Positions 1-15,841 of a DNA stretch of 32,000 nt are shown piece by piece. A program made the translations under genes and the position numbers. The stretch is from an uncultured Clostridia bacterium (GTDB lineage Bacteria > Bacillota > Clostridia > TANB77 > CAG-508), in the NCBI GenBank assembly GCA_944386365.1, contig CALXAT010000004.1, positions 56,715-88,714 on the forward strand, given 5' to 3'. The notes beneath the pieces are model-generated. The model was given only the letters and a program-made list of their open reading frames with translations, had not been told where the DNA came from and did no database searches. Positions within the stretch are counted from its first letter, which is position 1. Each line of letters opens with the position of its first letter.

Positions 1-743
1 AAAAATTAATAGAAACATATAAAGAAAAAAAGATTAATTTTGATGATAAATCTTTATATAAAAAAGAAAATAAAAAAAATATATTTAAAAATAAAAGAGA
101 TATGCCCATATTAGAGGATTTATATAATATTTTAAAAAAAGATAAAAAAACTGAAAAATTTTCTATAAAATTAATTCCATTTGTCAAAGGTTCAATGAAA
201 TTTTTTAATAATTATACAAATATAGAATTAAAAAATGAATTAATTATTGCAGATATATATGAATTAGGTGAGGAAAATTTAAAATATGGTATGTATTTAT
301 TTACAGATATTTTTTGGGATAAAATTAAAGAAAATAGAAAAGAAAAAAAAGCAATATATTTAGATGAAATTTGGAGGTTAATAGGTGTAACTTCTAATAA
401 AAATGTAGCCAGTTTTATATATAAAATATTTAAGACGATAAGAAAATATGGAGGAAGTAGTGTTGCTATAACGCAAGATATTTCTGATTTATTTAGTTTA
501 GAAAATGGAATTTATGGAAAAAGTATTTTAAACAATTCTAGTATAAAAACATTTTTTGCATTAGAAGAAGAAAATATAAAAGTATTATCAGAATATGCAA
601 ATTTGTCAGAAAAAGAAAAAATAGAAATTAAATCACTAAAAAGAGGAGAGTGTTTAATGTTTGTAGGAGAAGATCATATATTAACAAAAATTGAATGCTC
701 AGATGATGAATATGAAATTATAAAAGGAGAAAAAAATGACTAA
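1..743 (+). CDS. VirB4/TcpF-like conjugative type IV secretion ATPase, C-terminal part (5' end lies left of the window)
   Basis: The frame of ORF 102..743 stays open back to nt 3, so the gene is cut by the window edge. The translation has a VirB4/TrsE-type Walker B block (AIYLDEIWRLIG) and a downstream RKYGGSSVAITQDISD block. Stop TAA is at 741-743. Confidence 0.75.
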   Translation, partial: KLIETYKEKKINFDDKSLYKKENKKNIFKNKRDMPILEDLYNILKKDKKTEKFSIKLIPFVKGSMKFFNNYTNIELKNELIIADIYELGEENLKYGMYLFTDIFWDKIKENRKEKKAIYLDEIWRLIGVTSNKNVASFIYKIFKTIRKYGGSSVAITQDISDLFSLENGIYGKSILNNSSIKTFFALEEENIKVLSEYANLSEKEKIEIKSLKRGECLMFVGEDHILTKIECSDDEYEIIKGEKND

Positions 744-1773
744 AATATTAACAGCCATAAATGACCAAAAAATACTAAAAAAAATAATAAAAAATAAAAT
801 AACAGAAAATAAAAATATTTTATATAAAGAAGCAATTATTGATATATTAAAAAAAAATAAAAATATAGATTTAATAATTATTAGTGAAAAAATTCCTGGA
901 GATATAAATTTAATAAAATTAATAAAAAAAATAAAACAAATTAATAAAAAAATAAAAATAATTATAATTTTAGAAAATAAAAAAATGAAAAAAGAATTAA
1001 TAAAAATAAATATAAAAAATATTTATTATAATAATATTTTTAGCGTTTATAAACTAATAAAAAAATTAAAAGTAAGAAAAGGTTATCATATTACTGAAAA
1101 TTTATTTATTAATCACAATATAAATAAATTAAAAAATATATTTAATTATCAAAATAAAAAAACAGAAAAGAATGAAAACAACATAATATGTATATTTGGA
1201 GAAAATAAAATAGATAAAAAGATAATAGAATTAATTATAATAAAAAAATTATTAATAAAAAATAAAAATATAATAATTATGAATTTTAAATTAAATAATA
1301 AAAGAGAAAAAAATAGGAAAATAATTAAAATAAAAAAAATAAAGAATAAATATAATTTAAAGTTAAAAATAAAAAATATTAATGAAATAAAAATAAAAGA
1401 AAAAGTGATAAATAATAAAATAAAAAAAATAATAAATATTAATAATATATTAAAAAATAAAAATAAAATGATTAAAATAAAAATATTAAAAAATATAATA
1501 AAAAAATATAGTAAAAATAAATATTATATAGTAATTAATATACAATTTTCGTATAAAAATATAAATAAAATACCTTTGCAAAGCAAATATATAAATATAA
1601 TAAATTTAGAAAATAATAAAAAAAATTTATTAAAATTAAATAAATATAAAAAAGAAAATAAAAATGCATATTTAATATTAAATAATTATATTAAAAATAA
1701 TTTATCAAGATATTTTTATAAAATATTATTAAAAAATAAATTTAAAAAAATAAAAATTATTAATTTAATTTAA
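736..1773 (+). CDS. Ultra-low-complexity K/I/N-rich protein (345 aa); possibly a pseudo-receiver plus degenerate ParA/MinD-like fold (CpaE/TadZ-like)
   Basis: AAGGAG lies 6 nt upstream of the ATG. There is an 8-nt ATGACTAA overlap with the upstream ATPase gene. The frame is open for 345 codons in ~10% GC DNA, where TAA should occur about every ten codons. The N-terminus (KILTAIND...IDLIIISEKIPGDINLIKLIKKIK...IKIIIIL) resembles a receiver lacking the acceptor Asp. IICIFGENKIDKK sits where a deviant Walker A would be. The fold assignment is weak. Confidence 0.5.
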   Translation: MTKILTAINDQKILKKIIKNKITENKNILYKEAIIDILKKNKNIDLIIISEKIPGDINLIKLIKKIKQINKKIKIIIILENKKMKKELIKINIKNIYYNNIFSVYKLIKKLKVRKGYHITENLFINHNINKLKNIFNYQNKKTEKNENNIICIFGENKIDKKIIELIIIKKLLIKNKNIIIMNFKLNNKREKNRKIIKIKKIKNKYNLKLKIKNINEIKIKEKVINNKIKKIININNILKNKNKMIKIKILKNIIKKYSKNKYYIVINIQFSYKNINKIPLQSKYINIINLENNKKNLLKLNKYKKENKNAYLILNNYIKNNLSRYFYKILLKNKFKKIKIINLI

Positions 1774-1798
1774 CAAATAAAATAATTATTAATAAAAA

Positions 1799-2637
1799 AA
1801 ATAAAAATAAAAAAATAATAATAAAATAATAATAAAATAATAATAAATATATAAAATGTAAAAAACTATAAAAATATTTTTATAAATATAAGACATAAAA
1901 AATATTAATAAAAAAAGAATATAATGAACGAAAAAGTATTATTGTAAAATATCATTTATACAAATGGTAAAAAATGTAAAATAGAAAAAGAAAAAGTTCA
2001 TTTAAAAAAAATGGAAAATATAAAGGTAAACATAAATAAAAAAGATATAATTCAAAAAAATTATATAAATTTATAAAATTAAAACTAATAGAAATTTAAA
2101 AATGTAAGTTTACAAATATAAGAAGATTAATTAAAAACAAAAGAGATAAATAAAAATATAAAAAATGAAAATACTCCAAAAAAGAAAAGAAAATGCTACG
2201 CAAATAAAGAAAAAGTAAAAATGAAAGAATAAAGTATATTGAAAAAGCCAATAAATACAAAGTAAACATAAAATTGAAATAAAATTAAAGAAAAATAAAT
2301 GAAAAGAAAAGAATTTTGAAAAAAGGCTGAATAGTGAATTTTATATGTTAGAATATAAGAAATAAAAAAATTATTGAAACATATAAAGAAAAAATAAAAA
2401 TTGTAAAAATTAAAATGATTAATAAATAATTTAAAAATAAAATATTAATAATTAATTTTATAAACAATAAAGATAAATAAAAAATTAAATAATACTATTA
2501 ATATAAAAAATAAATATAATTAATAAATATTATTTAAAATATTTATTAAATAAAAAAAATAAAATAATTAAAAAAATAAATATAAAATATAATATAAAAA
2601 ATAATATAAAAATTAAAAAGTAAATTTAATAAATAAA
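1799..2637. repeat. Repeat unit 1 (full length, ~839 nt)
   Basis: Boundaries are approximate and set relative to the anchor at 1964. Block 2026-2152 is almost identical to 4275-4400 in unit 4 (2 substitutions plus a 1-nt indel by hand alignment). Confidence 0.6.
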
Positions 2638-3172
2638 AAAATAATAATAATAAATAATAATGCTAAAAAATATAATAATAAAATAATAATAAAAATATAT
2701 AATGTAAAAAATTTATTAAAGTATTTTATAAAAAATAAAAAATATTAATAAAAAAATATATAATGAACGAAAAAGTATTATATAAAATACTATTTATATA
2801 AAATGGTAAAAAAAAAATTTAAAATTATATAAATTTAAAGAAAGAATCTTAATAAGAATAACAGAAAGAAGGTTTATAGTTATGATAACATTAATAAAAA
2901 AGAAAAGAAATAAATAAAAATAAACCCAAAGATGAAGGGAAAAGAAATTTGAAAGAAGGTGAATAAAAAAATTTATATGTAAGAATATAAGAAATAAAAA
3001 ATTACCTAAGATATAAAACTTGGAGAAATCTTATGAAGATTAAAATGAGAAATAAATTATTTATAAAGTATTTTTATAAGTAATAAAAGACAAATAAAAA
3101 AAATGAAAATAAATATTAATAAAAAAAATTCTAATTAATAATAAATAAATTATAAAAAAATAATATATAAAT
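2638..3172. repeat. Repeat unit 2 (short, ~535 nt; lacks the middle block with gctacgcaa)
   Basis: The anchor at 2803 to tatatgt at 2974 spans 171 nt, versus 375-378 nt in units 1 and 3. Block 2974-3059 matches 3713-3798 at 79 of 86 positions. Confidence 0.6.
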
Positions 3173-4047
3173 ATTATAAATAAAAAAGCAATAATAAATA
3201 ATTATAAAAATAAAATAATAATAAATATATAAAATGTAAAAAATCTATTAAAATATTTTTATAAAATATAAGAGATAAAAAATATTAACAAAAAAATAAT
3301 GAATAAAAAAGTATTAATATAAATGCTATTTATACAAATGGTAAAAAGTGTAAAAGAAAAAAATAAAAAAATTTAAAAAAATAAATCAAAGAAACAAAAG
3401 TTAACATAAATAAAGAAGAAAAAATTTTAAAAAAAGTATTTAAATTTAAAAGGAGAATTTTTATAAAAATTGCAAAAGGAAAGTTTACCGTTACAATAAA
3501 ATTAATAAAAAAGAAAAGAGATAAATAAAAAGATGAAAGATAAAAATAGAAAAAAAGAGAAAAGGAAAAGCTACGCAATTAAAGAAGAATTAAAAGTAAA
3601 AGAATAAAGTATAAGGAAAATTAAACAAACATAAAGTAAACATAAGACAAAAATAAAATTGAACTCCAAAATGCAGGTAAAGAAATTTTGAAAGAAGGTT
3701 GATTGAAAATTTTATATGTAAAAATATAAGAAATAAAAAATTACCTAAGATACAAAATCTAGATAAATCTTATGAAGATTAAAATAAGAAATAAATTAAT
3801 TACAAATGAATACTAATAATTAATTTTATAAATAATAAAATGAATAAAATAATGCAATATTAATAATATAAAAAATAAATCACGAAAAAATGTATATAAA
3901 AAAATATTAATTAAATGAAATTAATTATAAAAAAAAGAAATAATTTAAATTTAAAAATAAATATAATATAAAATATAAAAATTAAAAAATAAAATAATAA
4001 AAAAACTGTTTAAAATAAAAATATATTATAAATTTATAAAAAAATAA
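3173..4047. repeat. Repeat unit 3 (full length, ~875 nt)
   Basis: Anchors are at 3338, 3570 and 3713. It shares the 3' block with unit 2 and the middle block (aagtttac..ataaaattaataaaaaagaaaagagataaataaaaa) with units 2 and 5. Confidence 0.6.
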
Positions 4048-4921
4048 AAGAAATAATAAAGATAATAAAATATAATATTAAAATAATGATAAATATAAAA
4101 AATGAAAAAAGCTATAAAAATATTTTTATAAAATATAAGAGAGAAAAATATTAACAAAAAATAAAAAATATAATGAACAAAAAAATATTATTATAAAATA
4201 GTTTTCATATAAATGGTAAAAAGTATAAAGTAGAAAAAGAAAAAATTCATTAAAAAAAAATTGAAAATATAAAGGTAAACATAAATAAAAAAGATATAAT
4301 TCAAAAAAATTATATAAATTTATAAAATTAAAACTAATAAAAATTTAAAAATATAAGTTTACAAATATAAGAAGATTAATTAAAACAAAAGAGATAAATA
4401 GAAAAATAAATGATGAAAATACTAAAAAAAAGGAAAAGGAAATGCTACGCAATAAAAGGAAAAGTAAAAACGAAAGAATAAAGTAGAAGAAAAAAATAAA
4501 TAAGTACTAAGTAAACATAAGACAAAAATAATATTAAAATTAAATAAATGAAAAGATTAAATGAAAAAGTTGAAATGAAAAAATACAAAATCAATAATGT
4601 GACTATTAGAAAGTAATCATATAAAAAATTTTTAGAGAAAGTTAAAAAGGAAAATGAAAATTTAAATATATAAATAAACAAATTGAACGTAATAATAATA
4701 GTAATAAAAAATAAATTAAACAGATAATAAATATAATAAAAATAATCAAAAAATAAATAATATAATAATGATTAATTTAATCAAATAAAAAAAGAAAAAT
4801 AAAAATATATTTAAAATGCAAAATTTATAGTATAAAAAATATTTACTCAAATATAAGTATAAGATAAAAGATTTTATTAAATAAAAAATATATAAATAAA
4901 AATTATATTTTTTTAAATATA
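4048..4921. repeat. Repeat unit 4 (~874 nt; 5' two-thirds like unit 1, different 3' block)
   Basis: Anchors are at 4213 and 4444. Block 4275-4400 is near-identical to unit 1. The tatatgt..ttacctaagata block is replaced by unrelated sequence (4540-4690). Confidence 0.6.
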
Positions 4922-5560
4922 TAATTAATTATATAAAAAATGATAAAAATAAAAAAATATAAATAAATATTATAAAAAATAATAAAAGTAATTTAAAATA
5001 AAAAACAATAAATATCGATAAGAAATATATATAAAATAAAAAATACATAATAAGCAAATATTAAGATAATTTTCAACAAACATAAAATGGTAAAAAATGT
5101 AATATTATAAAAAGAAAAATGTTATAAAAAAATAAAAGTAGACATAAATCGAAAAGAAGAATTTTCAGAATAATTGTTTATTTTTGGAAAGCAAGAATTA
5201 ATAAATATCAAAAAGCGGAAGTTTACGTTTATAATAAAATTGATGAAAAATAAGAGAGAAAATAAAAGATTTAAATATAAAAATGAGATAAAAATAAAGA
5301 AGAAAAAACTACGTAAATAAGGAAAAAATAAAAATAAGATTATTATATAAAAATAAAAAGAGCATATAAAAGTAGTGTACATAAAATAGAAATAAAATTT
5401 TTAAAAGTAAAGTATAAACGAGGATACAATTATTTATGAATAAAAGTAAAACATATAAATATGTGAAAGAAACAAAATTTATCTAAAGAAAAAATGCGGA
5501 TAATATATAAGTGAAAATAAATAATTATATAAAGAATCTGATAAAATGATTTTATTGATA
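4922..5560. repeat. Repeat unit 5 (most diverged, terminal copy)
   Basis: The anchor at 5087 and actacgtaa at 5308 keep the same spacing as other units (222 vs 231-232 nt). The segment cggaagtttacgtttataataaaattgatgaaaaataagagagaaaataaaag parallels unit 3. Similarity fades after ~5550. Confidence 0.45.
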
Positions 5561-5736
5561 TAAAAAAATGTAATCAAAAAAAGTCAGAATAATTAGATAT
5601 AAAAATTAAAATTAAAAATGAAAATAAATAAAATATTGAATAAAAAAATAATTAAATTAGAAGTAATTATTAAAAAAATTAAATTTAATAAAGAAAGGAG
5701 AGTATAATATAAAAATTATATTATACAATAAATTAT

Positions 5737-6456
5737 ATGGAAATAAATAAAATAGAAAATGAAGTAAATTTAAATAATGAAATAAATAGAAGTAATGAAC
5801 AAAAAAGTTTTTTAGAAACTACTCTAGGAAAAACAATAAATACAGCAATAGATATAGGAATACGAGCCTTATTACCAGATTTTGTAGATGAACAGATTAT
5901 TAATATAAAAGATAATTTATTAAACTATGGTTTAAAAGAGGGTATAGCAAAAACAATTAATGATGCTATAGATACAGGGAAGAGTGCAATAGGAATATTT
6001 ACAGGAAATTTCGAAAATGTTTCACAAATGCAAACTGCAGTTAAATCAGGAGGATTAATTGATGGAATTTCTTCTTTATTAGATACAGTTGTTGATAAAG
6101 TGAATCAAAAAGGATTGATCAATTATAATATTGCAAGTACGATTAAACAAGGTAAGGATGTTATATTAAATAGTATAGAAAGTAATATCGAAGATAAATT
6201 TAAAGAACAAAATATAGAAGTAGAAAATATAGAAAAATATATAAATAAATGGAAAGAAAACTTTAATAATAAGAATTTTAAAGGTATGGAACAGCAATAT
6301 AATAAAATAGAAAAAATATTAAATAATTTGGTACCTTTAGAAAAGATAATAAATCAAGCAAGAACAATTGAAAATCTACATAATTTAATAAAAAATAATG
6401 GGCAAGATTTTAATTTAAACCAAGAACAATTAGCATTAGCTGAAAAATTAATTTAA
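5737..6456 (+). CDS. Hypothetical protein, predicted all-helical, no signal peptide or TM segment (239 aa)
   Basis: A clean ORF with normal amino-acid complexity, in contrast to the flanking tract. It is followed by a weak hairpin (gggaa-ataaa-ttccc, ~6519-6536). I recognise no family motif. Confidence 0.6.
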   Translation: MEINKIENEVNLNNEINRSNEQKSFLETTLGKTINTAIDIGIRALLPDFVDEQIINIKDNLLNYGLKEGIAKTINDAIDTGKSAIGIFTGNFENVSQMQTAVKSGGLIDGISSLLDTVVDKVNQKGLINYNIASTIKQGKDVILNSIESNIEDKFKEQNIEVENIEKYINKWKENFNNKNFKGMEQQYNKIEKILNNLVPLEKIINQARTIENLHNLIKNNGQDFNLNQEQLALAEKLI

Positions 6457-6542
6457 ATAAAATGATATAAAAATTTTAAATATTTTTTTTCATTTATATA
6501 ATTTTATTCAAAAAAAAGAGGGAAATAAATTCCCCCGTTAAT

Positions 6543-6881
6543 TTATAATTTTCTATTTTCACTTTTTAAGAATGTATTAATAGAACAAGTAAATTCATAA
6601 ATAAAATTCAAACCTTCTTTAGAACAATCGTTTAAAATTCGATTAATTTTATTTATTGTTGTATTTGTCTTATTATTACCAAATAAAATATAATCGGTAG
6701 AAACACCAGTGAAGTTAACAATTTTAGTTAATGTTTTTATACTTAATGATCTTTCACCACGCTCGATTTGTCCTAAAAAGACACTTGATATATCAATCAT
6801 TTCTGAAAATTTTTCTCTATTCATATTTAAGCCTTCACGTATTTCTCTAATTCTTTCCCCAACTTTATAATCTTCTTGCAT
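6543..6881 (-). CDS. XRE/Cro-CI family helix-turn-helix transcriptional regulator
   Basis: The N-terminal HTH_3 signature is GERIREIREGLNMNREKFSEMIDISSVFLGQIERGERSLSIKTLTKIVNFTGVSTDYILFG. RBS GAGGTG lies upstream of the ATG. Confidence 0.85.
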   Translation of the reverse strand: MQEDYKVGERIREIREGLNMNREKFSEMIDISSVFLGQIERGERSLSIKTLTKIVNFTGVSTDYILFGNNKTNTTINKINRILNDCSKEGLNFIYEFTCSINTFLKSENRKL

Positions 6882-7448
6882 AATGTCACCTCAATAAAAA
6901 TATTATTTACATTATATTACAAAAAAGTTCGAAAACCGACTGACCGAAAGCATATGAAGAAAGTATGCAAAAAGCAATTGTTAACAAAAACAACATTAGA
7001 TATTATTATACAATATTTTATAAATAATAAGTAAATTATAGAAAATAAATCTATAAATTATGGCCAAGGGTGGTGGAAAAAGGAATTAAAATTTAGTAAA
7101 ATAAAATTATTAAAAAATGAATAGAAGAAAAGACGTCAAAGGAAGAAATAACAGGTTTAGAAAAAGAATAAATTAAAGATTTAAAGATATAAGATAAAAA
7201 TAAATCCATTAAAAAAGAATTTCAAAATGGGTTTATTTTATGTTTTTAAAGTAAAAAAAAATAGCATAAAAGATAATAGAAAGTAGTGATAAAATAGAAT
7301 TTGGTTAAAAGATGGAATTATTACAAAAGAAAAAAATACAGAAAAGTTATTTTAAAAGATATAATAAATAAAAAAATATAAAAAAGTATAAAAAAAAATT
7401 TACAATCAATAATAAATAATAAAATAGGATAATTAGGAGATGAATGTA

Positions 7449-7739
7449 ATGAATTTAAAAAATTCTAGAAAAAAAGATATGATAAATATGGTATATCAAG
7501 CACAAACAGAGAAAATTGATGAAATACTAAAGAAAACAGATAAAAAAGTAGAAGATGAATTAGAAAAAATAGAAATTGAAAGAATCATTGAAGATTCCAA
7601 TTGTAAAAAAGAGCTAAGAGATATGTTACGAAAAATAGAAGATAATTACAATATGAAGGTGACAGAATATAATAAGGAGATGTATAAACAGGGATTTATT
7701 GATGGAGTCAATTTAATATTAAATTGTTTAAAAGAATAG
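7449..7739 (+). CDS. Small hypothetical protein (96-99 aa), charged and helical
   Basis: The ORF in the track starts at 7440, but AGGAG abuts that ATG. The in-frame ATG at 7449 has 9-nt spacing. It lies on the opposite strand to the XRE gene, about 560 nt away. Confidence 0.55.
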   Translation: MNLKNSRKKDMINMVYQAQTEKIDEILKKTDKKVEDELEKIEIERIIEDSNCKKELRDMLRKIEDNYNMKVTEYNKEMYKQGFIDGVNLILNCLKE

Positions 7740-7784
7740 AAAGATGAAAATATTTATTTCCCTAGGTTTTTTTAAGGATTTTAC

Positions 7785-7813
7785 TTGCAAAATAAGGTTT
7801 GTTTTAGTATAAT
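7785..7813 (+). promoter_or_regulatory. Sigma-A type promoter candidate for gyrA
   Basis: TTGCAA (7785-7790), a 17-nt spacer, then TATAAT (7808-7813), ~37 nt upstream of the gyrA ATG. Confidence 0.45.
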
Positions 7814-10393: not shown

Positions 10394-11398
10394 TTATCTT
10401 GTCTTGAAACGTATATCATCTCCAAAGAAGCAATAAATATCATAATATCCAGCAATTCTAGAACCAATTCTTTCTTCATATTTATTAAAAATCTCATTAA
10501 TATTTAAATTTGTAGAAATAATGGTTTTTGTAATTTTATGATTCAAATTTAAAATTCTGGTATTAATAATAGTAAACAATTCACTTAATTTCATACTATT
10601 TAATGTTTCAGTTCCTAAATCATCAATAATTAGCAAATCGGTTTCTAAGACAGATTTATTAATATCTTCTAAATTAGATTTTTGTTTATTTAATTTATAG
10701 TCTATTATATTTTCAAGTAAAACAGGAGCTGTTTGATAAAGCACCGTTTTTCCCGATTTTAGTATTTCATTTGCAATACAATTAGAAAGAAATGTTTTTC
10801 CAAGACCTGTATTTCCTGTAAATAATAAATTCTTATAATTAGGGTTATCAAAATTTTGAACAAATTCTAAACATTTATCTTTTATTTTCCTAATATTTTC
10901 TCTAGGCGAAATAGGAAACTTATATTTATTAGGATTTACTTCATCAGAAAAAAGCAATTCATTAAAAGTAGAAAAGTTTTCCTTGTCCAAATTAGACATA
11001 TTGGATTTATTAAAAGAAATATCTAGAAGCCTTTGCTTTAAACAGCTACACATTTCTGTTTTGTAATTATCTTTTTGAATATATCCCGTATCTTTACATA
11101 AAGAACATTCATAATGTGGCATTAAATATTCAGAAGATATTTTATTTTTTTTCAAAATTTCTTGTTTTTCTTTTTTTAAAGAATTAATTTTATCAGTGAG
11201 TAATGATAAGGATTCATATTTTTTATTTAAAATATCTCTTGTAGTAGAAATAGCACAAGTGTTAATTTCATTTTCGATATTTCGTAATCTTGGAATTTTA
11301 TCATATAAAGATTCTTTTCTTTCTTCAGCAGCAATTTCTTCTCTTACTTTTTTTTGCTCATATTCTTTTAATAAAGAATTCAATATTTCATTAGCCAA
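10394..11398 (-). CDS. dnaI: DnaI/DnaC-like replicative helicase loader (AAA+ ATPase with N-terminal zinc-binding motif)
   Basis: Walker A is GNTGLGKTFL and Walker B is LLIIDDLG. The Cys cluster is ECSLCKDTGY...MCSC. The likely start is TTG at 11398, with AAGGAGG 6 nt upstream; the track's ATG at 11428 has no RBS. It overlaps the stop of the upstream DnaD-domain gene by 8 nt. Confidence 0.8.
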   Translation of the reverse strand: MANEILNSLLKEYEQKKVREEIAAEERKESLYDKIPRLRNIENEINTCAISTTRDILNKKYESLSLLTDKINSLKKEKQEILKKNKISSEYLMPHYECSLCKDTGYIQKDNYKTEMCSCLKQRLLDISFNKSNMSNLDKENFSTFNELLFSDEVNPNKYKFPISPRENIRKIKDKCLEFVQNFDNPNYKNLLFTGNTGLGKTFLSNCIANEILKSGKTVLYQTAPVLLENIIDYKLNKQKSNLEDINKSVLETDLLIIDDLGTETLNSMKLSELFTIINTRILNLNHKITKTIISTNLNINEIFNKYEERIGSRIAGYYDIYCFFGDDIRFKTR

Positions 11399-12377
11399 TT
11401 TTATCCTCCTTGTTTGATTGATTTGCATATAAAAAGTCTAAATTTTCATATTTCCTTTGTTCATAATTTACTTTTTCTACTTGCTGTTTTAGATTTTTTG
11501 TATCTTTATTTAATTTTTTCCTTTGCTCAATAAAAGCATTGACTTCAGAAGGTGTTTTTAGGTTTCTGTCATGCCAATCTGTAATAATGGTATTAATATA
11601 TTCAAAAGTAGGAGATTGTTTTAAAGTTGTACGTTTTAAAGCAATTTCAATAATATCCATATCATAGCCAAAATTTAAAACCCAGTTTTCAATATAGGCT
11701 TCTTCATATTGCGTTAAATTGCCATGTTTACCTAATTTTTTAGAAATAGATTTTTTTAAAGAATTTAATTTTTCTTGTTTTTCATAATATTTATCTAAAT
11801 CATTCCAAGTTTTAATTTTATTAGAAGCCCAAGCTTCCGCAACAGTTTGAACATAATTTCTATGCATAGCACTTCTATTATAGCAATAATCAAAAAGAGC
11901 AATCATAACTTGTTCATCAAAATTATATTTTCTAAACCAAATGTCAATGTCATTATACCAAGAAGGACTCATAATACCTTGGAAATACATATTGTTGATA
12001 TGTTCAATTGCTTTGGCTCTAGATTGATTTTTAGCAGTTTGAGCAACTTTTTCTTTAGAAACTGTTAGATTAGGTGTATATAATTCATGAAGTGTTGCTT
12101 CTTGTAAGTCTACAATAACATATCCTGTAGATTTTTTTGTAATTAATTTATTTTCTTCTAGAAATTTAAGACCTTCACTAATGGATTTTAAAGGTATATT
12201 TAACTTCTTTGATAGATCATTTAATTTTATATCTTTATTATATTTTGAAAGAAATAAGATATATAAATAAATTTTCAAATAATCTCCAGGAATTTGAGAT
12301 AAATAATCTGAAAAAAATATATCTGGTATTGATGTTTCGGAAAATAAAAGTGTTTTATCGTTTTGTTCTAATTTCAT
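11391..12377 (-). CDS. DnaD-domain replication initiation / primosome protein (B. subtilis DnaB/DnaD-like)
   Basis: It has an N-terminal winged-helix-like region and a C-terminal DnaD-type block (IMSPSWYNDIDIWFRKYNFDEQVMIALFDYC). It is translationally coupled to the DnaI-like gene, as in Firmicute dnaB-dnaI operons. The ATG at 12377 has a better RBS (AAAGGACGG) than the track's 12422. Confidence 0.7.
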   Translation of the reverse strand: MKLEQNDKTLLFSETSIPDIFFSDYLSQIPGDYLKIYLYILFLSKYNKDIKLNDLSKKLNIPLKSISEGLKFLEENKLITKKSTGYVIVDLQEATLHELYTPNLTVSKEKVAQTAKNQSRAKAIEHINNMYFQGIMSPSWYNDIDIWFRKYNFDEQVMIALFDYCYNRSAMHRNYVQTVAEAWASNKIKTWNDLDKYYEKQEKLNSLKKSISKKLGKHGNLTQYEEAYIENWVLNFGYDMDIIEIALKRTTLKQSPTFEYINTIITDWHDRNLKTPSEVNAFIEQRKKLNKDTKNLKQQVEKVNYEQRKYENLDFLYANQSNKEDKIG

Positions 12378-12472
12378 TTTTTTATCCGTCCTTTCTAAGC
12401 TCAAACTAAGAAATTGTTTCATTACAAAAGCCCTATATCTTTTTATATAAATTTCGTTATTTGGTAATACAA

Positions 12473-12501
12473 ATTATATCTTTTTTAGACAAAAAATTCA
12501 A
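12473..12501 (-). promoter_or_regulatory. Sigma-A promoter candidate for the DnaD-domain/dnaI operon
   Basis: On the minus strand: TTGAAT (12501-12496), a 17-nt spacer, then TATAAT (12478-12473). Confidence 0.4.
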
Positions 12502-12538
12502 GGTGAATTTTTTAAAATTAAAAGGAATTGTTTTAAAA

Positions 12539-12835
12539 CTACCTGTATGTATTTGTTTTAGTATAAAAAAATATTTTTTGTTTGAAAATAAATTTAAGCA
12601 TATAGGTAAAAATATAAATAATATTTTCTCCATGAATACCAGAAATACTAAGCAAGAAAATAGGAAAACAGAAAAGAATAAATATAACGACTTTTATATT
12701 GATATCCTGAATTAAAAGATGTAATAGTAAAAAAACAAATAATGCCCAAAGAATATTAATAATTGCTACAGAATAATCAATAACACCCAATATTTTATTT
12801 TTAAATGTATAATTTTGTGGAAAAATAAATTTCAA
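12539..12835 (-). CDS. TcpE/PrgI/VirB3-like small conjugal-transfer membrane protein
   Basis: 98 aa with two TM helices after an N-terminal YTFKNKILG motif. The TTG start has AAGGAG 8 nt upstream. It sits directly downstream of the VirB6-like gene. Confidence 0.5.
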   Translation of the reverse strand: MKFIFPQNYTFKNKILGVIDYSVAIINILWALFVFLLLHLLIQDINIKVVIFILFCFPIFLLSISGIHGENIIYIFTYMLKFIFKQKIFFYTKTNTYR

Positions 12836-12877
12836 AAAATCATCTCCTTAAATTCGTATAATAAAAAAATTATAATT

Positions 12878-13753
12878 TTATTTAAAATTTGTAAAACTTT
12901 TCACAGATTGTGTAATGGTTGTGGAAACACCACCAATAAAATCACGTACTAAAGAATTTGCTTTAATCAAACCATACATACCACCTACATAAATAAATTT
13001 ATTGAATAAATCAGTACTCGAAAAATCTACAGAAAACATTAAAAGTAAAATAATAGATACAATAATTTGAATAAAAAGAAGGGAAAATAAATTTTTAATC
13101 CAAGCTTTAAAGAACCAACTAGTATTAGAAAGAGTTAAAGATAAAAACGCAAAAGGTGTAATTAGTACAAAAACTTTTACTAAAACATATCTTAGGGAAT
13201 AGGTAAAAACCAAGTTTAATAAAGAAATGGATAAAGTACCTTTAATTAATCCATCAATTGAAAAAATGTTCAAAGAAGAAGTATTAACAGAAATAGTTGT
13301 ATTTATATTTGTAATTAAAGAAGAAAAGCAAATACTTTTATGAAATAAATCTTCTCCAATGCTACGAATGAATAATGAAATATTAGATATTAAATCGATA
13401 AATAGTTGAATAATAAAAAATGAGGCATTCATACAAATGGCATAAAGCATCATCTTGATGAAAAAACTAGAAGGTTTATCAATTTTATCATAAGTTAAGT
13501 GTGATAATAAATATTTAATACTGTAATATAATATAAACGCAAATAAAAGTGTATTGGCAATTAATAAAATACCACTAGAAGTGGAAGTTCCTAAAATATC
13601 CTGAAAATATTTATCGTTTAAAATATCAGAATTAATAAATGTAAGTTCATCTAATAAAGCGTATAAATTATTATCTATAGAACTAAAAATATTTTCAAAG
13701 ATTGTATTAATTGTATCAATAATTACTTGAGTAATATTTTGGGATTGTTCCAT
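12878..13753 (-). CDS. Polytopic membrane protein, VirB6/TrbL/TcpH-like T4SS channel component
   Basis: 291 aa with about 6 hydrophobic helices. AGGAGG lies upstream of the ATG. The call rests on synteny between the pilin-like and VirB3-like genes; no diagnostic motif was seen. Confidence 0.5.
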   Translation of the reverse strand: MEQSQNITQVIIDTINTIFENIFSSIDNNLYALLDELTFINSDILNDKYFQDILGTSTSSGILLIANTLLFAFILYYSIKYLLSHLTYDKIDKPSSFFIKMMLYAICMNASFFIIQLFIDLISNISLFIRSIGEDLFHKSICFSSLITNINTTISVNTSSLNIFSIDGLIKGTLSISLLNLVFTYSLRYVLVKVFVLITPFAFLSLTLSNTSWFFKAWIKNLFSLLFIQIIVSIILLLMFSVDFSSTDLFNKFIYVGGMYGLIKANSLVRDFIGGVSTTITQSVKSFTNFK

Positions 13754-13761
13754 AAAACCTC

Positions 13762-14133
13762 CTATCCAACTAAAGATTTTATTGCAGATAAAATTAAATC
13801 AATTGCTAATATGAAGGCATATGAAAAAAGAGAACCTTTTATTAGTTTTTTACCTGTTCGTATTTTTTCTTCATCACCAAAACTAAATTTTTTCATAAAT
13901 ACACCAGTACCAACAGCGACTGCAGCAGCCGGTGTAGAAATTTTTAATATCCAACCTTCAATATCTTCAAAAGCAGAATTAATGGTGGTAATTAACTTAG
14001 GATCGCCTAAAGCAAGAGAATAAGAAGAGCTAAAGAATATAAGTAAAATAAATAAAGTAAAAGTAAAGGATAAGTAGAAGAATATATATTTAGGTGTTAA
14101 ATAATTTTTTGTGTTTATTTTTTTTATTTTCAT
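13762..14133 (-). CDS. Small secreted/membrane protein, VirB2/TrbC pilin-like
   Basis: 123 aa with an N-terminal signal/TM segment ending SYSLALG, then two further hydrophobic helices (STPAAAVAVGTGVF, SLFSYAFILAIDLILSAI). AAAGGAG lies 7 nt upstream of the ATG. The start overlaps the coupling-protein 3' end by 44 nt. Confidence 0.4.
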   Translation of the reverse strand: MKIKKINTKNYLTPKYIFFYLSFTFTLFILLIFFSSSYSLALGDPKLITTINSAFEDIEGWILKISTPAAAVAVGTGVFMKKFSFGDEEKIRTGKKLIKGSLFSYAFILAIDLILSAIKSLVG

Positions 14134-15841
14134 AAATAAACTCCTTTCTATTTTTAAAATATGGAATCATTTGCAGTTTGCAAGGGGGATAAATTTTATT
14201 ACCATCTGATAAAAAACATAATGCTGAAAAAGTTTCCAGTTGTTGTGTAAAATAGTTTGATTCATAAATGTAATCGTTTTGAATATAGGTACTAATAGAT
14301 TCTGAAATATTAGAGTTTTCAGAATTTAAAGTGTTTGTAATATAACTGTACTTTGTTTCTTTTGCATTTTCTGAAAAACTTTGTGAAGTTCTTTTCTTTT
14401 CCTCTTTCCCTAATTGTTTTTGTGCTTCTTCAATAGTAAAAATATCATCTGTTCGAAACCAAATTTTATTAATCAAATTTTGTACAATAACCTTTACGAA
14501 AGAATCATCTTTTAAAGTATTTTTTAAAGAAGAATAACTTTGCGTACTAATAATATTGATACATTTGGCTTCTCTACTTAAAGAAAAAAATTCTGCATCT
14601 GTTTTACTGGCATATTTATCATATTCATCACAAATAAAAGCAGTAGGAATCACTGTTTTATTAGATAGATTAGACAATATTTCAGATTGAAAATCTAGTT
14701 TTAAATATGTGGCAATCATTTTAGAAAGAATACTATATTCAGAAATATTCATATTTAAAACAACAATTTTTCCTTTTTGGATAACTTCTTCAAATCCTGT
14801 AAAAGTGAGTTTTTCTTTGGAAGAACAGAAACAGGACATAACATCATAATCAGAAACAAAGGTATTGGTTATTCTTGTTATTTCAGAAATTAAAATGGCT
14901 TTTGTTCTTTGATCTAAAGTTTCAAATTCTTTTTGAAAAAAATCTAAACAAGAATTTAGTTCATAAATTTCACGAGAATTTAATTTTGAAGATATAAATA
15001 AATTTTTCAAGATTGGAATTTTTTCTTTGTAATATTGAGGAATGGTTATTATTTTATGCAATTCTAAAAAAGTTACATATCCATTGTTATAAAATCGACA
15101 AAGTTTAATACATTCTGTTAACACCTGTTCAGCTTTATCTAACCAATAAGATTCAGAATTATTTTCAGAAAATAATAGAAGTATTGTTTTTAAGCGATTA
15201 GCCAATACTTGAGGTTTCAAATGAGGTTTGTGTAAAGGATTGTAATGAATATTAGAGTGCAATTCAATAACAACTAAATCGGAAGATAAACCATATTTTT
15301 CACAAAATTTTCTAACTTGTGCATAATAATTTCCTTTTACATCTAAAATGAGCATAGCAATTTTTTTATTTTTATGTGTAGAATTGAATTGAAGAAGCTG
15401 TTCTGTAAAAGGATACATAGCGGAAGAAGTTTTTCCAGAACCAATTGTACCCGTAATTAAAAAATTTTGATAAAGTCCACTTTCAGGAATATATAGATTT
15501 GTTTTTGAAATTTTATCAAAACCAATACACATTTTTAATGAATTAGAAATAGATGATGTATGAGGATTCTCATTAGTTTGTATTAATTCTGTCTGAATTT
15601 TTTTTGACTTAAAAAATTTTTCTAAAATCTTAGAAATGAAGAAATTTAGTAAAACAATGTTGGAAAAAGTATAACATAATACATGTGTAATTTTTAAATA
15701 TTTCCATAAAATTGGATTTTTAGAACAAATATCAAATGGTTTAAGTCCATATGGAATAATTAATTCTTCAGCAGTATATATAGAATAAAAAAACTTCAAG
15801 TGAAGAAAAATAAATATTGTTGTTAAAGCGATTGTTAGCAA
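14090..15841 (-). CDS. Type IV coupling protein (VirD4/TraG/TcpA family)
   Basis: Two N-terminal TM helices. Walker A is GTIGSGKTSS, with LILDVKGN and Walker B FICDEYDKY, then a IISTQSYSSL block. The track start is TTG at 15841. An in-frame ATT at 15853 lies 10 nt after AGGAGG and would give MKRFLLTI... Confidence 0.8.
   Translation of the reverse strand: MLTIALTTIFIFLHLKFFYSIYTAEELIIPYGLKPFDICSKNPILWKYLKITHVLCYTFSNIVLLNFFISKILEKFFKSKKIQTELIQTNENPHTSSISNSLKMCIGFDKISKTNLYIPESGLYQNFLITGTIGSGKTSSAMYPFTEQLLQFNSTHKNKKIAMLILDVKGNYYAQVRKFCEKYGLSSDLVVIELHSNIHYNPLHKPHLKPQVLANRLKTILLLFSENNSESYWLDKAEQVLTECIKLCRFYNNGYVTFLELHKIITIPQYYKEKIPILKNLFISSKLNSREIYELNSCLDFFQKEFETLDQRTKAILISEITRITNTFVSDYDVMSCFCSSKEKLTFTGFEEVIQKGKIVVLNMNISEYSILSKMIATYLKLDFQSEILSNLSNKTVIPTAFICDEYDKYASKTDAEFFSLSREAKCINIISTQSYSSLKNTLKDDSFVKVIVQNLINKIWFRTDDIFTIEEAQKQLGKEEKKRTSQSFSENAKETKYSYITNTLNSENSNISESISTYIQNDYIYESNYFTQQLETFSALCFLSDGNKIYPPCKLQMIPYFKNRKEFIYENKKNKHKKLFNT

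Follow-up and report, generated by a model that had tools for sequence, protein, structure and literature searches.

In this study we describe an array of five direct, non-coding repeat units on the + strand (positions 1774..5736) of the window, by which we mean the whole 32,000-nucleotide stretch of uncultured Clostridia DNA analysed here. The array is real, it is turning over within a conserved syntenic slot, and short boxes in its units are conserved together with the spacing between them. We suggest, with somewhat less than even confidence, that the tract is an array of cis-acting sites, possibly centromere-like and with predicted protein binding, set in neutrally evolving filler.

Results

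The tract has 11.6% GC overall and 2-21% per 150-nt window, with a base make-up of A 0.616, T 0.268, G 0.083 and C 0.034, which agrees with an earlier note on this DNA that had described it as about 10% GC and A-skewed (62% A as measured). That note had also reported no long + strand ORF, and indeed stops occur throughout all three + frames, the longest stop-free run being 48 codons. An assembly artefact is excluded and the tract is real sequence, since positions 1-7800 of the window are 100% identical across five independent metagenome assemblies from two projects, a second strain, 34 substitutions and 14 indels away, has its tract organised in the same way, and homologous arrays occur in related species (3.9-4.3 kb in the second strain and relatives). 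Searches of Rfam (E<=5), of plasmids by blastn and of the literature matched the tract to no described family, as the earlier note had supposed.

Alignment divides the tract into units of 532-875 nt each, in a register whose boundaries are arbitrary: unit 1 (1820..2665), the short and degenerate unit 2 (2666..3197), unit 3 (3198..4067), unit 4 (4068..4940) and unit 5 (4941..5736), which is the most diverged. The earlier view of the tract as non-random tandem repeats is thereby upheld, and nearly all of the sequence facts behind it hold on recheck. The anchor AAATGGTAAAAA lies at 1962..1973, with further + strand copies at 2801, 3336, 4211 and 5085 (five matches by pattern count against 0.16 expected by chance in 32 kb); the spacings first given for it (839, 535, 875 and 874 nt) stand, but its start coordinates had been placed 2 nt too high. 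A second landmark was rightly assigned to four units, as GCTACGCAA at 2195, 3570 and 4444 and as ACTACGTAA at 5308, with an offset of 223-234 nt past the anchor instead of the 222-232 nt reported, and a 28-mer recurs at 2342, 2974 and 3713 just as described. Unit 2 keeps the anchor; it was said to lack one block of ~205 nt, and in fact ~340 nt are missing from it in two blocks.

The mosaic identity between units, which had been put down to unit exchange, is likewise real. Block 2026..2152 differs from 4275-4400 (both + strand) by 2 substitutions and one 1-nt indel, a near-identity that indicates recent exchange between units 1 and 4, and blocks 2974-3059 and 3713-3798 match at 79/86 positions, all as first reported. 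Units cluster by species, with identities of 0.64-0.89 within species versus 0.62-0.70 between species, and the two strains differ by 0.86% substitutions in the tract (plus the 14 indels) versus 0-0.28% in the flanking genes. Homology to the units was sought in the VirB4 gene, the XRE region and the upstream spacer, and the sole sequence in common is one 29-nt motif, the unit-start motif TGTAAAAAACTATAAAAATATTTTTATAA (1857..1885, + strand), of which a 27/29 copy lies outside the window between gyrB and the VirB4 operon promoter (L001:1717-1745). Comparison of the units with the downstream gene p239 gave one weak local match of 26.3 bits, the control maximum being 23.7.

Four of the five units contain a module of ~170 nt, composed of AAGTTTAC (box B), ~80 nt, CTACGYAAAnAAGGAAAAAA (box C), 58 nt and AGTAAACATAAnnnAAAATAAA (box A). 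Module 1 spans 2106..2284 (nhmmer E 4e-17), with box B AAGTTTAC at 2106-2113, box C CTACGCAAATAAAGAAAAAG at 2196-2215 and box A AGTAAACATAA...AAATAAAAT at 2261-2284; module 3 spans 3481..3658 (nhmmer E 1e-18; B 3481-3488, C 3571-3590, A 3635-3658). Modules 4 (4355..4533; B 4355-4362, C 4445-4464, A 4510-4533) and 5 (5219..5398; B 5219-5226, C CTACGTAA 5309-5328) were also found by nhmmer, the latter with the box A variant GTGTACATAA at 5375-5384. All of these lie on the + strand. Unit 2 gave no module match, having a decayed box B (GGTTTAT, 2871-2877) and neither C nor A box. An extra upstream A-type box, found only in the window species and in L008, is present as GTAAACATAA at 2026..2035, with more + strand copies at 3400-3409 (a GTTAAC variant), 4275-4284 and 5138-5147 (a GTAGAC variant).

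Across six species, GTTTA is present in 27/27 modules and GT..ACATAA in 27/27, while the C box is kept in 5/6 species; box A follows box C at a distance of 64-67 nt, most often 66, and follows box B at 139-154 nt. In alignments that are anchored on the boxes themselves, the G/C positions of the boxes are kept in 26-27 of 27 modules, as compared to a G/C retention of 4-24% at 4-fold sites in the same species pairs, where overall identity is 57-69%. On this comparison we hold that box sequences and spacing are under purifying selection, well beyond the neutral benchmark, and since the boxes are conserved while the rest decays, the tract probably holds candidate binding sites and is not pure junk. 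Within +/-10 kb the modules occur on the + strand only and in this slot only. Real modules scored 22-76 bits with nhmmer, with the exception of two extra copies in L013 and L014 (14.6 and 19.1 bits), and reversed-sequence controls reached at most 6.7 bits. A metagenome scan used too loose a pattern, and all of its 120 matches are attributable to chance. Viral contigs yielded 47 matches to box B ... box A, about half of them with one common spacing; in L228, the match examined, both strings fall in a phage structural gene with neither the C box nor other similarity, and we read the viral matches as chance.

Upstream of the tract lies the 3' part of a VirB4-like conjugal-transfer ATPase gene (1..743, + strand; Pfam P-loop_TraG/AAA_10), which starts upstream of the window and is 571 aa at full length (the full gene is in L001). 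A full-length relative matches NCBIfam conju_CD1110 (E 5e-84), which supports the earlier reading of the gene beside the tract as a VirB4-type T4SS ATPase. It is followed by p345 (736..1773, + strand), which has a receiver-like N-terminal domain and then a degenerate ParA/MinD-like domain, and which is open over 345 codons with no in-frame stops, at 4-14% GC. Its orthologue in L017 matches AAA_31, CbiA, ParA and the PHROG ParA-like family; in the window protein both Walker A (GENKIDKK) and Walker B are degenerate and the SLHII motif is lost. Downstream, p239 (5737..6456, + strand) encodes a conserved helical protein with 4873 homologues, none of them named, for which a domain search gave no Pfam, NCBIfam, PHROG or PDB match and the AlphaFold model (pLDDT 45.7) is unusable. 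An XRE-family HTH regulator gene (6543..6881, - strand) is present in some array-bearing species only, and DnaB_2 and DnaC-like genes lie ~5 kb off on the other strand.

The slot between the ParA/MinD-like gene and the 239-aa gene is variable and sits inside a conjugative-element remnant, which is itself located between gyrB and gyrA with gene order kept in about 50 species-level genomes. The tract is outside any currently mobile element: what the earlier note took for one is a remnant that has become fixed at this site and is passed on vertically. The best-matching plasmid has no ParA-like gene in its VirB4 neighbourhood and is uninformative here. Array size varies from 0 to 4.8 kb across species, and in species without the array p239 lies directly 3' of the ParA-like gene. 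The array is dispensable, being absent from many related species, one of which also lacks the ParA-like gene.

Discussion

We propose that the array is lineage-specific and comprises two kinds of sequence. About 80% of it would be AT-only filler that drifts at the neutral rate or faster and is reshuffled through unequal crossing-over and gene conversion, processes that could account for units being mosaic, for their homogenisation within species and for unit numbers that vary. The module in each full unit, by comparison, would be under purifying selection, neither translated nor a folded RNA, and would work as DNA, as a putative repeated assembly site for a protein complex whose members might come from the ParA-like, p239 and VirB4 remnant between gyrB and gyrA. 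Presumably such an array was born by tandem duplication of the 3' end of the ParA-like gene plus the downstream region, as the tandem duplication visible in sister lineages suggests, and would persist because useful sites stay while the remainder decays towards about 3% GC. The setting speaks for this account as well: a ParA/MinD-family gene stands immediately 5' of the array, with p239 next to it in species without arrays, and at least 16 distant species have regularly spaced GTTTACATAT sites in the same slot, the first of them inside the SLHII codons of the ParA-like gene; units there whose flanks have lost their likeness to the gene still retain GTTTACATAT. Action at the DNA level, protein binding, a link to partition and an origin from the ParA-like gene in this clade are what we infer here. 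Among the roles that the earlier note had listed, the conservation pattern suggests that an iteron- or centromere-type maintenance region fits closest.

A close parallel might be found in the F sopC and P1 parS centromere arrays. As in those systems, a putative array of cis-acting sites adjoins a ParA-family ATPase gene (p345, whose L017 orthologue matches ParA), the distant clade has a copy of the site within or beside the par gene, and the repeats are species-specific and fast-evolving. Partition centromeres such as sopC and parS, however, consist of short, contiguous repeats of 11-43 bp beside parA genes, whereas here single boxes of 8-22 nt, occurring once or twice per 600-1100-nt unit, are spread over a 170-nt module and the modules stand 600-1100 nt apart. 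The locus here is also chromosomal, and no ParB, ParG or ParR-type gene is recognisable in it. Several points weigh against our preferred account: p239 offers no recognisable domain and no usable model as a candidate binding protein, centromere repeats are not single sites 600-900 nt apart, Walker A is degenerate in the ParA-like protein of the window clade, many related species do without the array, and the case for conservation leans on alignments anchored on the boxes. An iteron-type origin proper was set aside, since no cluster of 17-22-bp direct repeats next to a rep gene was found. If the boxes are indeed binding sites, the locus would show how a gene fragment becomes a cis-acting repeat as it loses coding content and decays to about 3% GC, and this would hint at a function for the conjugation-derived set of split VirB4, ParA-like protein and p239, which roughly 80 species-level gut genomes have kept between gyrB and gyrA. 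In a fuller version that we ourselves consider doubtful, the three-box module would be an undescribed chromosomal cis element, born from a parA-like 3' end and amplified into AT-saturated tandem arrays at gyrB-gyrA, which the domesticated conjugation-derived set may use for segregation or domain organisation (centromere-like, or via SMC/Xer) across uncultured, low-GC Clostridia of the gut, a widespread clade.

Alternatively, the modules might act at the level of RNA, for instance as an unstructured "box-type" small RNA gene or as a repeated cis element in a long p345-p239 transcript that is recognised by an RNA-binding protein or an RNase. Every module is co-oriented with the flanking operon, a uniform orientation that an RNA-level element would be expected to show and that counts to this extent against DNA sites; with no terminator separating p345 from p239, transcription could plausibly read through, and box C has a purine-rich AAGGAAAAAA stretch. 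Nevertheless, we think an RNA-level role rather doubtful. Folding of the units gave z-scores of -0.07 and +0.13 on the two strands, the consensus structure amounts to a 6-bp GUUUAC/GUAAAC pairing with no covarying pairs, Rfam returned no match, whether at its gathering threshold or with the limit relaxed to E<=5, and the tract holds 47 promoter-like sites versus 52.9 expected and no terminator-like sites. The folding, covariation, promoter and terminator scans thus leave the earlier suggestion of tandem non-coding RNA genes unsupported, and a structured ncRNA family was set aside on the same Rfam, folding and covariation results. The E. coli long direct repeats (LDR: ldr/rdl), which carry type I toxin-antitoxin genes, are alike in being tandem direct repeats of ~0.5 kb in a chromosome; unlike them, the units here lack a conserved small hydrophobic ORF and show no sign of an antisense RNA. 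Type I toxin-antitoxin repeats were rejected because shuffling the sequence yields minus-strand ORFs just as long.

A further possibility is that the ParA-like gene, or its 3' part, was duplicated in tandem and that the tract is what neutral decay has left of the copies, without function and with the boxes being relics or alignment artefacts. Distant relatives lend this some weight. In four of them (L056, L032, L075 and L035) copies of the ParA-like gene of the species itself occupy the slot, at z-scores of 15-250, and in two others (L034 and L037) there are weak copies with z-scores of about 5; some distant-relative copies keep ORFs that match the C-terminal half of the gene. Filler at 2-3% GC, fast turnover between strains and an array size that falls to nothing in some species are also what debris would show. 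We nevertheless consider plain debris unlikely for the window clade, given that neutral G/C retention is far below that of the boxes, that box spacing is fixed to +/-1-2 nt in an indel-rich tract, and that decay is not uniform along the unit in the 27 modules. Nor would gene conversion from the ParA-like gene uphold the boxes, since the window-clade gene no longer has the motif. The decayed tandem gene family that the earlier note entertained truly describes the slot in L056, L032, L075 and L035 and cannot account for the invariant boxes of the window. That note had also taken intact genes in syntenic relatives as the mark of pseudogene debris, and this is borne out by half: ParA-gene copies are present there, but the window-clade units are not evolving as plain debris.

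No homology to the ParA-like gene was seen in the units of the window, L008, L010, L013 or L019, in tests that were powerless, their positive control having failed between clades; an origin from this gene is accordingly not demonstrable for the window clade, which counts against that part of the site-array account. In lenient blastn of the units against the gene, reversed-sequence controls scored equally high; composition-aware Smith-Waterman alignment of the window units gave z = -0.1; a ParA-like protein profile, with and without null2 correction, gave no signal; and BLOSUM Smith-Waterman alignment to the protein gave P = 0.29-0.99 against shuffles. A distant-clade 3'-end profile found no match in the window with nhmmer and missed the true orthologue too, which is why we regard these tests as lacking power. 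The first version of an anchored pairwise test was circular, and with box B masked its signal was no better than that of an unrelated gene region. Tandem pseudogene or silent-cassette arrays resemble the distant relatives' slot in their partial gene copies, mosaic identity and gene conversion, and the window array in its concerted evolution. They differ in that the powerless tests above showed no parent-gene homology in the window clade and in that its units are far beyond coding capacity, with only short non-coding boxes conserved; antigenic variation would make no sense here, as the parent protein is a cytoplasmic ATPase.

It might also be proposed that the boxes are half-sites for a Xer-type or other recombinase that makes the units and keeps their register, which would suit the single site per unit, the concerted evolution and the variable unit number. 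The distant-clade AGTTTACATAT matches at 10/11 nt the reverse complement of the right-hand B. subtilis dif arm (11 nt), which we take to be the XerD-binding arm, and the window's box A matches the same arm at 9/11 nt. The B. subtilis dif sequence is ACTTCCTAGAATATATATTATGTAAACT (PMC3025954), and XerD-bound dif-like XDS sites have been described (PMC11840125). With XDS the array shares short, oriented motifs like a dif half-site in multiple copies (9-10 of 11 nt), without a partner XerC arm; it differs from them in lying at gyrB-gyrA and not at the terminus, and in having two other conserved boxes per module. We find site-specific recombination decidedly unlikely, as neither an XerC arm nor a 6-bp central region stands beside any box, the window has no recombinase gene, and the gyrB-gyrA locus is normally near the origin. 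AGTTTACATAT is equally what results when the S-L-H-I of the ParA-like gene is written in AT-rich codons, and its likeness to dif may therefore be coincidence. A full dif/XerCD site, which requires two 11-bp arms and a 6-bp centre, was rejected, there being one arm-like half and no conserved partner.

Several other classes were set aside. Integron attC sites have the core consensus RYYYAAC/GTTRRRY, which GTTTAC/GTAAAC do not fit, and the window has no integrase gene; an invertible promoter switch is at odds with the same orientation of all 27 modules, and a DGR template repeat with the lack of a reverse transcriptase. A MITE with 6-bp terminal repeats, DnaA boxes, Ter sites and sporulation-sigma or sigma-70 promoters at the boxes were dismissed by inspection.

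Finally, the tract gave no coding signal any more than one of RNA structure, and small proteins on either strand, or their rescue via slippage or stop-codon recoding, are scarcely credible: lysine-rich-protein-like frames do run over 40-60 codons in single units and minus-strand ORFs of 57-86 aa exist, but all three stop codons occur in each + frame, none is consistently open across 9 copies, stop counts favour no common ancestral + frame, minus-strand ORF length is at chance (observed maximum 108 vs shuffle mean 107), a search of 5.8 billion proteins with the longest relative ORF returned no homologue, and the flanking genes use the standard code.

In practice, repeats of ~4 kb at 12% GC next to gyrA/gyrB are likely to break contigs and to cause mis-binning of this clade in gut metagenomes. 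The filler, at 2-3% GC versus about 27% genome-wide, also provides a clean natural gauge of these genomes' mutational equilibrium.

Structure of the repeat tract

The tract at window 1774-5736 (+), between the ParA/MinD-like gene p345 (736-1773) and the gene for the conserved 239-aa protein p239 (5737-6456), consists of 61.6% A, 26.8% T, 8.3% G and 3.4% C, with a GC content of 2%-21% per 150 nt. The repeat of five units described in the earlier note is genuine: the 12-mer AAATGGTAAAAA was found five times on the + strand (1962, 2801, 3336, 4211 and 5085) as compared to 0.16 expected. The spacing reported for this anchor was exact, its positions being 2 nt lower than first given, and the remaining landmarks and both quoted block identities were reproduced exactly. 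Five-way alignment and sliding identities also confirm the proposed mosaic identity among units; across one block identity is 96-100% for units 1 and 4 as compared to 60-80% for units 1 and 3, and in another units 2 and 3 are the closest pair. Unit 2, thought to lack a single block, lacks two (~340 nt in total by the five-way alignment). Window 1-7800 is identical across five independent assemblies from two projects, which excludes the tract being an assembly artefact.

A three-box module and its possible function

The first DNA relatives of the window units came from L008 only; short motifs then connected L007, L013 and L014, plus a single copy in L010, and loci fetched via relatives of p239, three of them taken from the many p239 relatives with 82-90% identity, supplied a second strain (L207) and two further species (L208/L210 and L211). 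Arrays of this unit family span ~3.9-4.3 kb at 11-12% GC and hold four to seven direct units. The tract total is steady at 3.9-4.3 kb in the window, L207, L008, L208, L210 and L211, and across those same tracts the units number 4 to 7 and are each ~600 to 1150 nt long.

When aligned, 27 modules drawn from six species define a ~170-nt element in which box B (AAGTTTAC) has GTTTA in 27/27 modules, box A (AGTAAACATAAnnnAAAATAAA) has GT..ACATAA, again in 27/27, and box C, (A/G)CTACGYAAAnAAGGAAAAAA, lies between them in five of the six species. Boxes C and A are 64-67 nt apart, mostly 66, and boxes B and A 139-154 nt apart (106-133 nt in L013 and L014). Matches to the module profile in the close clade fall on the + strand only and in the p345-p239 slot only, scoring 22-76 bits, bar two extra copies (L013 and L014) at 14.6 and 19.1, with reversed-sequence controls reaching 6.7 bits at best; window unit 2 has no match to the profile. 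A metagenome scan returned chance matches only, the pattern being too loose. A scan of viral contigs gave 47 matches, about half with one common spacing; the one match examined is a phage structural gene carrying boxes B and A by chance, without box C.

We tentatively favour the reading that the module is a putative DNA-level nucleoprotein site linked to the ParA-like and p239 genes. An element acting at the RNA level seems rather unlikely: the module's consensus does offer one pairing, GUUUAC/GUAAAC, alone and invariant, and its folding energies are no different from those of shuffled sequences on either strand, no Rfam family matches it even at E<=5, and a scan revealed no enrichment of promoter-like sites and no terminator-like sites.

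That the units are functionless debris is a reading to which we give little credence. In benchmark pairs (the window species against L008, L007, L009, L012, L013, L208 and L211) identity at 4-fold degenerate sites is 57-69%, with G or C kept at such sites in just 4-24% of cases, and between two strains the tract differs by 0.86% substitutions and 14 indels (maximum 37 nt) as compared to 0-0.28% substitutions and zero indels in the flanking genes. The filler, the AT-rich remainder of each unit outside the boxes, is thus evolving no more slowly than neutral sites do. Unlike the filler, the G/C positions of the boxes and the distances between boxes are kept, and for this combination we see no neutral explanation.

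Recombinase sites would be a still more doubtful interpretation. We take the right-hand arm of Bacillus subtilis dif to be the XerD-binding arm. The distant-clade motif AGTTTACATAT matches 10/11 nt of the reverse complement of this arm, and window box A matches it at 9/11 nt (dif sequence: PMC3025954); dif-like XerD sites (XDS) have been described (PMC11840125). Unlike dif, the second arm is absent here, and the likeness is therefore a lead only. A coding role can scarcely be entertained, as stops occur throughout all three + frames of the tract, none of the + frames stays open consistently, minus-strand ORFs are no longer than expected by chance and the longest ORF from a relative found no homologue, whereas p345, directly upstream, is open over 345 codons despite 4-14% GC.

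Origin of the arrays

The data fit a picture with two components, in which tandem duplication seeds arrays within a permissive slot and the bulk of each unit then decays toward mutational equilibrium, with a short oriented module being kept by selection. In sister lineages the seed is visibly the p345 3' region; in the window clade it is untraceable. In L056, L032 and L075 the slot holds tandem or single copies of the species' own p345 (z = 73-250 vs shuffles), and some such copies keep ORFs resembling the p345 C-terminal half; homology of the slot to its own p345 has z = 15 in L035 and z ~5 in L034 and L037. In the window and close relatives every test for homology of units to p345 was negative, in tests of low power; a profile of distant-clade p345 3' ends misses even the true orthologue in the window clade, so these negatives carry little weight. 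Units group by species, which fits ongoing unequal exchange. The slot evidently accepts insertions, since in other species it contains Rpn/YhgA-like (PD-(D/E)XK transposase-like) genes (L043:4579-5481 and L078:12793-13833, and also L070).

Arrays in at least 16 species of a distant clade carry one GTTTACATAT per unit, evenly spaced; L034, for instance, has seven sites ~650 nt apart. The first copy forms the S-L-H-I codons of p345's conserved SLHII motif, and GTTTACATAT persists in units whose flanks have lost p345 resemblance. Sites also occur in AT-rich tracts between the gyrB and VirB4 genes of L025, L035 and L072, and the L072 tracts indicate that distant-clade arrays are not confined to the p345-p239 slot. 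L072 has two 178-aa ORFs of equal length (1087-1623 and 6547-7083), of which one (the first) matches the VirB4 N-terminal domain and the other is probably its duplicate, each preceding an AT-rich tract with regularly spaced GTTTACATAT sites.

Locus context

On longer contigs the gene order is gyrB, a small ORF matching the VirB4 N-terminal domain, a VirB4-like ATPase (571 aa; NCBIfam conju_CD1110, E 5e-84), p345, the tract, p239, a minus-strand XRE regulator, a 99-aa ORF and gyrA. We compared 80 related loci with the ATPase gene, from species-representative genomes labelled uncultured Clostridia or Clostridium sp. CAG:343 and CAG:575; the same order is kept wherever the contig is long enough, with the ATPase gene and p239 both present in 53 of the loci. 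The locus is therefore a vertically inherited conjugative-element remnant, not currently mobile, in place of the mobile element first supposed. Among relatives the ATPase-to-p239 distance runs from 25 nt (without p345) up to 5.9 kb, and the tract, once p345 is subtracted, from almost nil to ~4.8 kb.

Beyond gyrA lie a coupling-protein gene and DnaC/DnaD-like genes, in the window all on the minus strand: DnaC/IstB-like (10394-11428), DnaB_2 (11391-12422), two unknown ORFs (12878-13753 and 13762-14133) and a VirD4-like coupling protein (14090-15841). Conjugation and replication remnants thus continue past gyrA (window 10394-15841), which places gyrA inside the remnant. In one same-species assembly an IS110-family transposase gene sits downstream of DnaB_2 (L001:17426-18709), at the position of the window's two unknown ORFs (12878-14133); this is a strain-level rearrangement.

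Wherever its two parts could be found in a relative, the VirB4-like ATPase is divided between an N-terminal ORF (~180-200 aa) and an ATPase ORF (~570 aa). The corresponding region of the window species is L001:2590-5007, partly upstream of the window and overlapping window 1-743; here the N-terminal ORF lacks any ATG, GTG or TTG near its Shine-Dalgarno sequence and the gene call is an 87-aa piece only. Also upstream of the window, at L001:1717-1745, the unit-start motif TGTAAAAAACTATAAAAATATTTTTATAA recurs with 27/29 matches between gyrB and the promoter of the VirB4 operon; a degenerate CTAGGCAA ... GTAAAC pair, ~68 nt apart, immediately precedes a good TTGACA-17-TAAAAT promoter.

The p345 of relatives with higher GC fuses a receiver-like domain to a ParA/MinD-type ATPase. 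The window-clade protein has a degenerate Walker A motif (GENKIDKK, where the family consensus reads GEKKSGKST) and has lost the SLHII strand motif; p345 is an ORF maintained while its catalytic motifs decay. For p239 there are 4873 homologues, none named, and structure prediction gave an unusable model. The sole Shine-Dalgarno-like sequence ahead of p239 within window 5690-5740, AAAGGAGAG, is ~35 nt before the ATG at 5737, and in L010 such a sequence is 7 nt before the start, which suggests that the p239 leader carries an insertion or that translation starts in an unusual way. A GC-containing hairpin (gagggaaataaattccccc, window 6507-6535) separating the convergent p239 and XRE genes looks like a putative bidirectional terminator.
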